Shown piece by piece: positions 56,987 through 58,750 of a stretch of 64,000 nucleotides of DNA (position 1 is the stretch's first letter; every line of letters begins with the position of its first letter). The DNA is taken from the IMG/VR virus record IMGVR_UViG_3300035208_008180; one strand, written 5' to 3'. The position numbers and the translations under genes were made by a program. The DNA comes from a virus. Taxonomy: Duplodnaviria; Caudoviricetes. The notes under the pieces were generated by a model that saw nothing but the letters and a program-made list of their open reading frames with translations, was not told the DNA's origin and made no database searches.

Positions 56987-57067
56987 AGCCCATCCAAGTC
57001 TGGTCAGCTTTGATTGGAAACGATATGGAAGTTTCTGTTTGTAAGCTGGGCCGGTATGGGATGGGCT
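56987..57067 (-). ncRNA. Y-RNA-like motif copy Y0 (no tRNA domain) in the Ro leader
   Basis: AGCCCAUCC-CAUAC...UUACAAACA...ACUU-GGAUGGGCU; 9-bp closing stem. Confidence 0.7.
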
Positions 57068-57085
57068 TGTTCTGTTGTTTTGTTT

Positions 57086-57316
57086 TTAGCCGAAAACTGC
57101 CTCCGGTCGGAGTGTAAGGGTGTTAGTTTCACCATTACGATCAACAGCAAAAGCCCGTAGCTTCCCTTGAGGGATGCCTAGCCAATCGGCGGCAGCATTG
57201 CGGATATCGGCATCCGAGCTATTGTCGCCAATATTCAGTTCCGCCAAGGGAACGTCGTAAGACCTTCCTTCGACTCGAACGTGCAGCATGTTTTCAAGTT
57301 GGTTTTCGTTGTCCAT
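57086..57316 (-). CDS. ubiquitin-like (beta-grasp) protein ending in Gly
   Basis: 76 aa; beta-beta-alpha-beta pattern LHVRVEGRSYDV...DADIRNAAADWL...TLTLRPEAVFG; AAGGAG RBS. Confidence 0.72.
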   Translation of the reverse strand: MDNENQLENMLHVRVEGRSYDVPLAELNIGDNSSDADIRNAAADWLGIPQGKLRAFAVDRNGETNTLTLRPEAVFG

Positions 57317-57359
57317 CGTAATTTCTCCTTATATCGTTCGTTCGTCTTTCACTTTCCCT

Positions 57360-57387
57360 ATTATACTTCAGAAATTTGAGTTGTAAA
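57360..57387 (-). promoter_or_regulatory. early promoter TTTACA-N16-TATAAT for Ubl-Ro
   Basis: Same repeated motif. Confidence 0.75.
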
Positions 57388-57397
57388 CAAGAAAAAA

Positions 57398-57523
57398 TCC
57401 GTCCAAGTTACAAAAACTGTTTTTGGTAAACAATGCAGGAATTGAACCAGCATTCTTCAGTTTTCAAGACTGACGCTCAACCATTGAGCTAATTGTTTGT
57501 AAGTTTTAGTGGTATGGGACGGA
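57398..57523 (-). ncRNA. Y1: complete tRNA-like cloverleaf (anticodon UGA, encoded CCA) enclosed by the Y-like stem
   Basis: Core 57424-57498: AAACAAU/AUUGUUU-ACCA, GCUC D arm, UCAGU-CUUGAAA-ACUGA, UUCAAUU T loop. Confidence 0.8.
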
Positions 57524-57526
57524 AAG

Positions 57527-57655
57527 TGGAGGGTGTTGGATTCGAACCAACATTTTTTCGTTTTCAGTGAAAAAAGTTACCTTTTGTTTGTATGTCTCTC
57601 AGGTGTGGGACAATTGCTTGTCCAAGTTTGGGAAACTGAACGTTTTTAACCCTCC
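57527..57655 (-). ncRNA. Y2: tRNA-like (anticodon GAA) with the permuted Y-like stem inserted in the D arm
   Basis: Acceptor GGAGGGU/ACCCUCC-A; T arm GUUGG-UUCGAAU-CCAAC; insert ACUUGGAC..GUCCCACAC..UACAAACA. Confidence 0.78.
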
Positions 57656-57665
57656 AAAGTATCAG

Positions 57666-57792
57666 CGGGGAAGATGGGATTCGAACCCATAATTTTTCCT
57701 TAACAGGGAAACTTTTACCAATTGTTTGTATGTCTCTCAGGTGTGGGATGGTCGCCCATCCAAGTTTGGGAAACTGAACTTCTAACTTCCCC
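57666..57792 (-). ncRNA. Y3: tRNA-like (anticodon GUU) with the Y-like stem inserted in the D arm
   Basis: Acceptor GGGGAAG/CUUCCCC-G; UUUCC-CUGUUAA-GGAAA; AUGGG-UUCGAAU-CCCAU. Confidence 0.8.
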
Positions 57793-57882
57793 ATGTGCCC
57801 GGTTTATAATTCTCTGCCTGCAACCGGAAACCCGGCAGAAAAGCCTCCAGTTATTGGTTTATCCCAAGAGGCGAGTAATCAG

Positions 57883-58008
57883 ACCCGGTGGTAGGAGTCG
57901 CACCTACAATCTTTTCCTTAGGATGGAAACGCTGTTTGTACGTCTCTCAGGTTTGGGATAATTTCTTATCCGAGTTTGGGAAACTGTTTGCTGTTTAGCT
58001 TCACCGGG
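57883..58008 (-). ncRNA. Y4: tRNA-like (anticodon CCU) with the Y-like stem inserted in or next to the D arm
   Basis: Acceptor CCCGGUG/CACCGGG; UUUCC-AUCCUAA-GGAAA; GUAGG-UGCGACU-CCUAC. Confidence 0.78.
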
Positions 58009-58013
58009 ATATT

Positions 58014-58172
58014 CATAAGGCAAACATTTGATCGTCCAAGTCGAAGAAACTGTTTTTTGCAACAATGTTGGATTCGCACCAACTACCGAAACTTTATGGA
58101 AGTTTTGCTCTACTGATGAGCTAATTGTTTGTAAGTTCCGTCAGTATGGGACGATCAAATGTTTGCCTTATG
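58014..58172 (-). ncRNA. Y5: tRNA-like cloverleaf (anticodon CAU) enclosed by the Y-like stem
   Basis: 24-bp perfect outer stem; GCUC D arm; AAACU-UCCAUAA-AGUUU; GUUGG-UGCGAAU-CCAAC. Confidence 0.8.
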
Positions 58173-58183
58173 TTGATTTTACC

Positions 58184-58360
58184 GACGCAAGCAAGTGTTG
58201 GCCCGTCCAAGTCGAAAAAGCTGTTTCACATAGTGACAGTTTAATAGACTGTTGCCTTTACCATTAGGCTAAAACACATTTTGGCGTGTTTGTTGGATTC
58301 GAACCAACAGATTGTTTGTAAGCTCTGTCTGTGTGGGACGAGCAAACACTTGCCTGCGTC
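58184..58360 (-). ncRNA. Y6: circularly permuted tRNA-like domain (anticodon AUU) opened at the variable loop
   Basis: Order is T arm, acceptor hairpin AAACACG-CCAAAA-UGUGUUU, D arm GCCU, anticodon ACAGU-CUAUUAA-ACUGU. Confidence 0.8.
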
Positions 58361-58532
58361 AACATCATCAAGCTTCCGTCTGTCCAAGTTGAAGAAGCTG
58401 TTCAACTTTTGACAGTTCCAATTACTGGTGCCTGACCGTTAGGCTACATTCCTTGCGGAATGATGGGAGTCGAACCCACTTATTTGTTTGTAAGCTCCGT
58501 CTGTATGGGACAGACGGAAGCTTGATGATGTT
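58361..58532 (-). ncRNA. Y7: circularly permuted tRNA-like domain opened at the variable loop
   Basis: 25-bp perfect outer stem; T arm GUGGG-UUCGACU-CCCAU; acceptor CAUUCC-GCAA-GGAAUG; D arm GCCU; atypical anticodon loop AAUUGGA. Confidence 0.8.
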
Positions 58533-58564
58533 TACAACTCAAATTGTCAAAGAACACAAAATTG

Positions 58565-58655
58565 GCTATCCAAGTTCATAGAGGGGAGAACATTCAAATC
58601 TCCCCCTTCAAGCGGGGGAGAAAGTCGTTTGTAACCTCTATAGGTTTGGGATAGC
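58565..58655 (-). ncRNA. Y8: Y-like motif with a non-tRNA hairpin cargo
   Basis: GCUAUCC-CAAAC..UUACAAAC..UCUCCCCC/GGGGGAGA hairpin..ACUU-GGAUAGC. Confidence 0.7.
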
Positions 58656-58657
58656 AA

Positions 58658-58698
58658 GGGGAGCCGTTGGAGTCGAACCAACAAAACCACAAGCCCCG
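58658..58698 (-). ncRNA. tRNA minihelix-like element (T arm + short acceptor)
   Basis: GGGGCU...GUUGG-UUCGACU-CCAAC-GGCUCC. Confidence 0.5.
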
Positions 58699-58750
58699 TC
58701 TTTCAACACTATACGCTGAATACCGTATTGCGGTTCATTCAGTATGATCT

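Follow-up and report, generated by a model that had tools for sequence, protein, structure and literature searches.

A conserved RNA handle joined to tRNA-like bodies upstream of Ro60-fold protein genes in a phage contig and its viral and bacterial relatives

What is a row of RNAs with tRNA-like parts doing directly upstream of the gene for a Ro60-like protein? The question is raised by a 64,000-nucleotide stretch of viral DNA (Caudoviricetes; IMG/VR record IMGVR_UViG_3300035208_008180; hereafter the window), in which the minus strand between 56987 and 58655 carries nine copies of a bipartite motif, and the gene that follows on the same strand (55393-56961) encodes a 522-residue protein with a predicted Ro60 fold. 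Here we describe the motif, its two helices, the positions at which it is grafted onto tRNA-like bodies, the fold of the protein and the linkage of the two in phages and bacteria. We propose that the RNAs are probably Y-RNA-like, with a constant handle that would dock onto the Ro60-like ring and tRNA-shaped parts that would present tRNA surfaces as tethers or decoys.

The motif consists of a 5' element, RTCCCAHAC, and a 3' element, ACTYGGAY. On the minus strand of the 64 kb, RTCCCAHAC occurs ten times, nine times in the array (starts at 58652, 58511, 58339, 58152, 57959, 57749, 57611, 57520 and 57062) and once as a stray at 22164; ACTYGGAY also occurs ten times on this strand, nine times in the array (58575, 58389, 58212, 58041, 57975, 57765, 57627, 57408 and 56999) and once as a stray. 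TACAAAC follows at exactly +19 after all nine array copies of RTCCCAHAC. When GTCCC-N14-TACAAAC is searched for with at most one mismatch, 9 matches are found against 0.24 expected, and none of 100 shuffles gets to nine; in the full 6.25-Mb assembly, TCCC-N14-TACAAAC occurs ten times, as the nine array copies and one stray. The clustering of nine copies of both motif halves, first claimed in an earlier interpretation of the letters alone (the sequence-only reading), is thereby borne out. Standard annotation (ARAGORN; Rfam at gathering thresholds) finds two tRNAs in the array, 57424-57498 (UGA) and 58059-58130 (CAU), i.e., conventional tRNA/Rfam annotation picks up only two of its nine RNAs.

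Folding and inspection show that each copy forms a handle with four parts: (i) an outer helix, which in the window ends with (G/A)UCC paired to GGA(C/U); (ii) an internal loop, in the window 5' C-A-H-A-C facing 3' A-A-C-U-Y, with the conserved pattern 5' C-(C/A)-N-A-Y facing 3' R-A-C-U-Y; (iii) an inner helix, whose 10-nt 5' segment varies in sequence from unit to unit with complementarity retained; and (iv) the invariant UACAAAC on the 5' strand. The internal loop is unpaired in minimum-energy folds, and it is this loop that is conserved; the bulged C followed by an A-U pair given in the sequence-only reading is not demonstrated. Cargo is attached at the inner-helix end of the handle in all units, and the far side of the handle consists either of the 5' and 3' ends of the RNA itself (open form) or of a GNRA tetraloop (closed form). 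Six units are open (U1-U4, U8 and U9), with the handle helix formed by the RNA ends; in the other three (D5-D7) the handle is tetraloop-capped and the RNA ends lie in a tRNA acceptor stem.

The closed hairpins, at 57987-57934 (D5), 57777-57724 (D6) and 57639-57586 (D7), begin with the 3' half of the motif, which pairs with the next 5' half across a GAAA, GCGA or GCAA cap, respectively, through perfect 6-bp stems. It had been claimed that the halves pair within each unit; this is true of the six open copies, and in the three closed copies the 3' half pairs with the 5' half that follows it. We also considered the three central copies as open units, an arrangement that leaves the 3' half at 57975 and the 5' half at 57611 unpaired and mispairs AUCC with GGAC. 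The closed arrangement is preferred because it provides three perfect GNRA-capped stems and is matched by 47 covarying hairpins, whereas the open arrangement strands two halves.

Among the open units, two are plain (U1 and U9), two hold a complete nested tRNA (U4 and U8) and two hold a circularly permuted tRNA (U2 and U3). In U1 (58565-58655), identified by folding and a handle detector, a 7-bp outer helix leads to a plain G+C-rich hairpin; U9 (56987-57067), identified in the same way, has an outer helix of 9 bp followed by a U tract and is separated by 26 nt from the Ro60-like start codon. U2 (58357-58536) and U3 (58180-58364), defined by folding and ARAGORN, have outer helices of 29 bp (with one mismatch in U2), and ARAGORN calls tRNA(UUG) and tRNA(AUU), respectively, only once the interior is re-opened at the acceptor loop. 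The cargo of U2 starts with the T arm, followed by an acceptor hairpin with a GCAA loop, the D arm and the anticodon arm (UUG), with the handle at the position of the variable region, and gives a partial match to the Rfam YrlA model (27.7 bits at 58430-58479, model positions 31-81 only). The order T arm, acceptor stem-loop, D arm, which is that of the YrlA tRNA-like core, is found in U2 and U3 only. U4 (58014-58172; outer helix 24 bp) encloses the CAU tRNA at 58059-58130, and U8 (57398-57523; outer helix 7 bp, then a U tract) encloses the UGA tRNA at 57424-57498, which has an encoded ACCA; both are called by ARAGORN, and the 5' end of each nested tRNA is the AAAC of the conserved UACAAAC. With Rfam tRNA scores of 46.3 and 69.9 bits, U4 and U8 exceed the cut-off of 29 bits, below which four other bodies fall as encoded: U3 27.0, D6 26.6, D7 25.3 and D5 16.9.

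In the closed units the handle sits in the D region of a tRNA-like body with a free, perfect 7-bp acceptor stem, an anticodon arm and a T arm. D5 (57883-58008) has the acceptor CCCGGUG/CACCGGG and the anticodon CCU; its closed handle replaces the D arm, no D-loop remains, and ARAGORN gives no tRNA after removal of the hairpin. D6 (57666-57792) has the acceptor GGGGAAG/CUUCCCC and D7 (57527-57655) the acceptor GGAGGGU/ACCCUCC; with the hairpin deleted in silico, ARAGORN calls tRNA(GUU) for D6 and tRNA(GAA) for D7 across the junction. A covariance model built from the 47 closed hairpins (R1) scores the three at 58.5, 60.7 and 62.7 bits, respectively. The anticodons of the array are therefore UGA and CAU (ARAGORN, Rfam tRNA), GUU, GAA, UUG and AUU (ARAGORN on edited sequence) and CCU (by eye): the six named in the sequence-only reading are all present, the loop it regarded as atypical is called as UUG, and its core proposal, a constant handle on variable tRNA bodies, holds. 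For annotation, this means that tRNA genes can carry a hairpin of about 54 nt in the D region, predicted to serve in protein docking, which bears on how phage tRNA sets are annotated and interpreted.

Both helices covary. The 47 closed hairpins, three from the window and 44 from 19 other loci, align to a 54-position consensus in which 86.4% of cells are paired and 11 of 15 pairs show two-sided changes; the covariation score is 0.503 against 0.218 after shuffling (0 of 500 shuffles match the observed value), and partners that are slid along the alignment give 0.06-0.13. Open handles were collected with our own heuristic detector, whose criteria are the loop pattern, NACAAAY, CTYG and a minimum of 4 outer and 5 inner pairs. 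Outer-helix pairs 5-9 are not among these criteria; across 247 unique open handles they are paired in 98-71% of cases, compared with 73-44% in shuffled sequences, and several positions left free by the detector are nearly invariant: the T and the last C of TACAAAC (100% each), the C two bases ahead of TACAAAC (98%) and the A before CUYG (94%). The motif positions are invariant in phages and bacteria whose Ro60-like proteins share just 46-57% identity. Thus, the flanking stems vary yet still pair, as had been noted from the window.

The same modes of grafting recur among relatives, as judged from 150 unique units collected with a stricter first detector; the counts come from our own heuristic detectors, and ARAGORN was run on computationally edited sequences. 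Twenty-nine units are open with a nested tRNA, which in 25 of them starts within 2 nt of the motif AAAC. Closed hairpins lie within an ARAGORN-callable tRNA in 26 of 49 cases, compared with 1 of 147 displaced control deletions, and their junctions fall at tRNA positions 8-22. Permuted tRNAs (permuted at the acceptor loop) are found in 7 of 16 long open interiors and in 0 of 48 shuffles. Plain units account for 26 of the 150, and more than 20 different anticodons occur among the surveyed units.

The predicted model of the 522-residue protein, based on an alignment of 31 homologues (predicted local distance difference test score, pLDDT, 85.5; predicted template-modelling score, pTM, 0.77), shows a HEAT-repeat ring and a C-terminal vWA domain with a D-x-S-x-S MIDAS motif (an adhesion site dependent on metal ions), in which D343, S345 and S347 are invariant across the 31 homologues. 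In a Foldseek search of the Protein Data Bank (PDB), the 11 best matches are all Ro60 proteins (human, Xenopus, Deinococcus Rsr and phage phiLo); their alignments cover the full length, with E values of 3e-11 to 6e-8 and template-modelling (TM) scores of 0.54-0.65; isolated vWA domains rank next. The vWA_Ro60 family is detected, below threshold, in two of four homologues scanned. As modelled, the protein has the whole Ro60 fold, and its identity is apparent from the fold and not from Pfam; the proposal of a phage Ro60/TROVE protein beside the array stands as regards Ro60, by fold, and fails as regards a Pfam TROVE match. At least 1701 proteins match the 522-residue protein at E<=0.001, and a large Ro60 clade escapes Pfam. 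The sole Pfam TROVE match of the assembly lies elsewhere, in a 505-residue frame (C145:16507-16653) on a 51-kb contig of 48.7% G+C, and is unrelated to the phage protein by tblastn.

The handle and the protein occur together elsewhere. A tblastn search of 50,697 phage records with the 522-residue protein returned LR756511.1 only, a 595-kb uncultured phage (locus L001) with a 57%-identical homologue and 13 same-strand motif copies upstream of it, including closed hairpins within tRNAs; across one closed hairpin the Rfam tRNA model matches over its full length (50.6 bits). Relatives are encoded in at least 571 stretches of species-representative genomes, mainly in Planctomycetota with some in Chloroflexota and Desulfobacterota, and the sources include multi-megabase contigs and cultured strains such as the planctomycete Zavarzinella formosa DSM 19928. 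Anchoring on the protein gave 10 viral, 80 metagenome and 80 genome loci for survey. Upstream of the gene and on its strand, 263 kb contain 120 copies of the strict motif, compared with 7 in 989 kb elsewhere. All R1 matches lie on the strand of the protein gene, both in 91 viral and metagenome loci (131/131, E<=1e-3) and in the 80 genome loci (72/72, E<=0.01); of the 42 loci in which 3 kb or more of upstream sequence is available, 32 have a match, as do 42 of the 61 with 1 kb or more. The heuristic scan of 172 sources yields 362 paired handles on the gene strand versus 1 on the opposite strand. Closed and open handles number 68 versus 162 in viral and metagenome loci and 7 versus 116 in genome loci.

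The bacterial members are exemplified by a 4.8-Mb Aeoliella contig (locus L190), in which a homologue of the 76-residue protein encoded within the phage array and at least six tandem open units precede the Ro60-like gene. The handle here is a variant, GUAC-CCAAC...UACAAAC with ACUYGUAC, and two units give sub-threshold matches to the YrlA core (39.1 and 33.8 bits versus 69). The Ro60-like family is thus cellular as well as viral, and a distant cousin of the Rsr/YrlA system. The linkage that the sequence-only reading anticipated is found in other genomes, and the arrangement is not peculiar to this phage: protein family and handle are widespread in bacterial chromosomes. A separate scan of viral contigs by the closed-hairpin pattern matched 37 stretches and found the full motif in just three loci from two contigs; the remaining matches, without the rest of the motif, are attributed to the pattern having only 14 specified bases.

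Other features of these loci extend the range of handle-bearing units. A number of loci from metagenomes and bacterial genomes have a plain open unit after the Ro60-like gene as well, between that gene and the one for a conserved 335-residue protein or farther downstream (L093 6759-6842, L095 7444-7515, L131 7470-7540, L165 7006-7085, L178 6744-6818 and L182 8214-8291). Open handles with cargos of about 150-300 nt that do not resemble tRNA are seen at L001 2697-3000 and L190 4470-4650. These two cargos have in common a word of about 17 nt, GACGGUC-N-UAAGGUAGC, which may resemble a conserved segment of 23S rRNA; the word (L190 near 4495, L001 near 2720) is absent from the assembly, with no blastn match to E. 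coli genomes and no Rfam rRNA match. Inside the L001 array, ARAGORN calls a tRNA with a four-base anticodon (gaaa) at 2552-2627 (Rfam tRNA 47.7 bits).

How much of this is known? Ro60/Y RNA/PNPase particles have been described, as have rows of several Y RNAs beside Ro60 (PMC4201824, PMC12135203), and copy number by itself is therefore not new. A phage or bacterial Ro60 with one to several upstream Y RNAs is already known, and so is the permuted tRNA-like core of YrlA. YrlA RNAs are listed for three planctomycetes in the supplement of Chen et al. (PMC4201824), whose Ro60 genes may or may not belong to the present clade, and the YrlA of Mycobacterium smegmatis is cut by RNase P and gets CCA (PMC4201824). 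The Ro60 of Thermus phage phiLo binds two upstream Y-like RNAs and forms a complex with host PNPase (PMC12135203).

Compared with these systems, the phage array resembles YrlA with Rsr/Ro60 (Salmonella, M. smegmatis; RF02553; PMC4201824), in which the RNAs are adjacent, on the same strand and often several per locus, and in which a permuted tRNA-like core is joined to a separate Ro60-binding module; U2 and bacterial units of the clade match this core below threshold, and the array, like Y RNAs, lies directly upstream of its Ro60-like gene on the same (minus) strand. Unlike YrlA, the handles lack GNCGAAN0-1G and have the conserved internal loop and UACAAAC instead. The position of the handle also differs: in YrlA it is joined via the anticodon stem and there is no anticodon loop (PMC4201824), whereas the phage units have it at the variable region, where the anticodon arm is complete, at the acceptor end of an entire tRNA, or, as a closed hairpin, in the D region. 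Phage phiLo (PMC12135203; PDB 9KOP, 9L5Y) similarly encodes a Ro60 with Y-like RNAs immediately upstream, but its Yrl1 and Yrl2 are two plain stem-bulge RNAs, found via a CGAA motif, without tRNA bodies or an array, and its Ro60 is only about 13-14% identical to the present protein in structural alignment. In animal Y RNAs and Deinococcus Yrn1 a conserved Ro60 site lies in a helix formed from the RNA ends, as would be the case in the six open units of the array, and Xenopus Ro60 contacts a GGUCCGA strand (PMC4201824), comparable with GUCC followed by a C at the loop border in the phage handle; they differ in that the phage cargo is a complete or permuted tRNA. Bas63 gp130 is likewise a Ro60-fold phage protein beside tRNA genes, some of which its authors suggest may be Y RNAs, and it counters a host defence system; it has no detectable sequence relationship to the 522-residue protein, and no handle is described in the available text (PMC11482910).

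In the available portions of the literature searched, which included PMC4201824, PMC12135203, PMC7824862, PMC11482910, PMC11208441 and bioRxiv 10.1101/2021.07.29.454249, we did not find: (i) the handle; (ii) its insertion, as a closed hairpin, into complete tRNAs at the D region, or whole tRNAs nested on it; (iii) its placement at the variable region beside an intact anticodon arm; or (iv) the Pfam-invisible Ro60 clade with its two conserved partner proteins. The sequence-only reading was aware of no described family with this motif or copy number; for the motif this search agrees, and for the copy number alone it does not, given the known rows of Y RNAs. No Rfam family, YrlA and Y_RNA included, matches in full.

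We consider the following mechanism the likely one. A handle composed of an outer helix ending in G-U-N-C/G-N-R-C, a 5x5 internal loop, a covarying 10-nt inner segment and UACAAAC would be bound by the Ro60-like ring encoded directly downstream. Because its far side is either the RNA ends or a GNRA loop, the same handle fits the acceptor end, the variable region or the D region of a tRNA. The parts shaped like tRNA would in turn recruit tRNA-binding proteins or serve as decoys for them; candidate effectors are host PNPase, for which the Ro60/Y RNA/PNPase particles and the phiLo complex are the precedent, tRNA repair enzymes (the RtcB and CCA-adding enzyme of the phage) and host anticodon nucleases. 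From the anatomy of the units, RNase P and 3' trimming might process the tRNA ends, and RNase III might cut the long outer helices (24-29 bp) of U2-U4. Binding, processing and effector are proposed here on the basis of sequence data, fold predictions and co-occurrence. Involvement in tRNA damage, repair or anticodon-nuclease defence, given RtcB, the CCA enzyme and the diversity of anticodons, is an attractive conjecture.

Several observations weigh against this proposal. As for the protein, Pfam TROVE (PF05731) gives no match to it at E<=0.01, the best PDB sequence match, to the phiLo TROVE protein, is weak (E 0.012), and identity in the structural matches to Ro60 is only 11-15%. As for the RNAs, no unit in the window reaches the YrlA gathering cut-off of 69 bits, the best being U2; the 17 Rfam matches obtained for 56800-58900 at E<=10 do not include Y_RNA (RF00019); and minus-strand GNCGAA is absent from the nine handles, occurring within 56987-58700 just at 57269 and 57341, outside the units. 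About a third of the units surveyed in relatives fall into no class (23 of the 49 closed hairpins without a tRNA call and 39 of the 150 units unpaired), and an R1 match is missing in 10 of the 42 loci with long upstream flanks. The AAAC would be paired in the acceptor stem of the nested units, so that UACAAAC cannot have one structural role throughout. Lastly, the operon encodes two other conserved proteins, of 76 and 335 residues, either of which could bind the handle instead.

A bolder version of the Y-RNA-like proposal, which we put forward only tentatively, is that the handle is a portable Ro60 tag inserted at several tRNA positions, including the D region of complete and maybe chargeable tRNAs, which would then act as anticodon-specific baits. 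If so, Ro60-tethered tRNAs in phages and planctomycetes would bring damaged or attacked tRNAs, or the attacking host nucleases, to a Ro60-based repair or decay particle, and the system would be one of anticodon-addressed counter-defence or surveillance.

The bodies of D5-D7 also invite another explanation, namely that these units, perhaps together with the nested ones, serve the phage as functional tRNAs in translation and bear an extra arm; the handle would then be an accessory for stability, quality control or protection. Their acceptors are perfect and free, their anticodon and T arms are normal, and GG elements like those of a D-loop are present, all of which fits such a role, as does the presence of closed hairpins in callable tRNAs with many anticodons among relatives (the 26 of 49 noted above) and of a CCA-adding-type enzyme in the phage. 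We nevertheless regard it as unlikely: the 63 ordinary tRNA genes of the contig already include GUU, GAA, CCU, CAU, UGA and UUG, the handle-bearing bodies are no close copies of ordinary tRNAs, D5 is without a D-loop, and the acceptor stems of the nested tRNAs are A/U-only and start in the invariant motif. Moreover, the acceptor ends of U2 and U3 are sealed, and these two therefore cannot be charged.

Somewhat less probable again is an arrangement in which the Ro60-like protein acts on other RNAs and merely shares the operon, the handle being a binding or processing site of the 76-residue or the 335-residue protein, or a host RNase site. The gene for the 76-residue protein lies inside the array (57086-57316, minus strand), and a homologue lies upstream of the Ro60-like gene in 65 of the 90 viral or metagenome loci and in 44 of the 80 from genomes; the gene for the 335-residue protein (53548-54555, minus strand) follows the Ro60-like gene, as it does on the same strand in 52 and 45 of these loci, respectively, and its OB-fold domain weakly resembles RNA-binding S1 and cold-shock proteins. 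The long outer helices of U2-U4 would, in addition, look like RNase III substrates. In all studied Ro60 systems, however, the adjacent same-strand RNAs are Ro60 ligands (PMC4201824, PMC12135203), the handle is laid out like the known ligands, its helix containing a conserved internal loop close to the ends of the RNA, and bacterial units of the clade retain the YrlA-like tRNA core, at the sub-threshold scores given for the Aeoliella contig. That the units are functionless remnants of a decaying tRNA-gene array with a repeated spacer is highly improbable, for although several bodies violate tRNA rules (a missing D arm, A34 anticodons, weak acceptor stems), both helices are kept by compensatory changes, the motif positions are invariant though the proteins have diverged to 46-57% identity, and strand and position relative to the gene are strictly fixed.

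We therefore return to Y-RNA-like RNAs of a Ro60-like ring as the preferred explanation and turn to their genomic setting. Upstream of the array, a promoter-like site on the minus strand (58751-58778; TTGACA, 16 nt, TATAAT) matches the sigma-70-like consensus at 12 of 12 positions, by consensus match only, and is followed by a leader (58656-58744, minus strand) that contains a hairpin as well as a stem-loop resembling a T arm (GUUGG UUCGACU CCAAC), for which the fold of leader plus U1 has z = -3.45; there is no recognisable tRNA surrounding the T-arm-like stem-loop. Between D5 and D6 lies a spacer with two predicted hairpins (57793-57882, minus strand). A second promoter-like site (57360-57387, minus strand; TTTACA, 16 nt, TATAAT) stands ahead of the 76-residue open reading frame (ORF), U9 and the Ro60-like gene. 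U8 and U9 each end with a stem followed by a U tract, and a strong terminator-like hairpin of 15 pairs (55340-55372, minus strand) follows the Ro60-like gene. Nearly identical promoter-like sites with TTTACA, 16 nt and TATAAT are found on the minus strand at 59067-59094, 57360-57387 and 55309-55336; the two nearest to the array have in common ...GAAGTATAAT, and the likeness of the three sites suggests a phage-specific promoter consensus.

Searches of NCBIfam, PHROGs and the protein atlas returned nothing useful for the Ro60-like, 76-residue or 335-residue proteins. The 76-residue protein belongs to no known family (no Pfam or PHROG match); H12, G17, S19, G30, S33, T68, P71 and A73 are invariant in 28 sequences, nearly all of which end in ...RP(E/Q)AVFG. 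The model of the 335-residue protein (pLDDT 80.9) contains a coiled coil, beta-barrel domains, one of them with a generic OB fold (residues 106-178, Z 6-7), and an acidic C-terminal tail; its S1/OB matches are weak only, and it is a possible partner in the Ro60-like system.

The window corresponds to C200:276073-340072 and forms the end of a contig of 340 kb, on which structural and replication genes of phage type are found. At 40.5% G+C, compared with a mean of 65.4% for the other contigs of the assembly, the contig looks, by composition, like that of a huge phage binned with a high-GC bacterium. Besides the array it holds a tmRNA and 63 tRNA genes of the ordinary kind, the latter without exception on the minus strand, and it encodes an RtcB ligase and a PolyA_pol-family enzyme of the CCA-adding type. 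The handle-bearing bodies were also considered as paralogues of the phage's ordinary tRNAs, an idea dropped in view of low alignment scores and no consistent same-anticodon match. Divergent to the array, two large ORFs with collagen triple-helix repeats (59162-64000, plus strand; Pfam Collagen E 5e-39 for the second) probably encode fibre proteins.

A weak hint of array expression comes from a peat metatranscriptome, in which four contigs of relatives, 85-99% alike, all fall on parts of the array (57584-58332) and none on the Ro60-like ORF; such contigs of relatives carry no ends, strand or level, and DNA carry-over is possible. A wastewater RNA library contains a single 153-nt contig on the small ORF.

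Ro60 and Y RNAs are conserved from bacteria to humans, and the role of the variable part of the Y RNA is largely open. The present clade amounts to a natural experiment on this part, in which a single handle occurs with many tRNA bodies, across three topologies and hundreds of genomes. Since cultured planctomycetes such as Z. formosa DSM 19928 carry the system, the role of the variable part of the Y RNA becomes testable.

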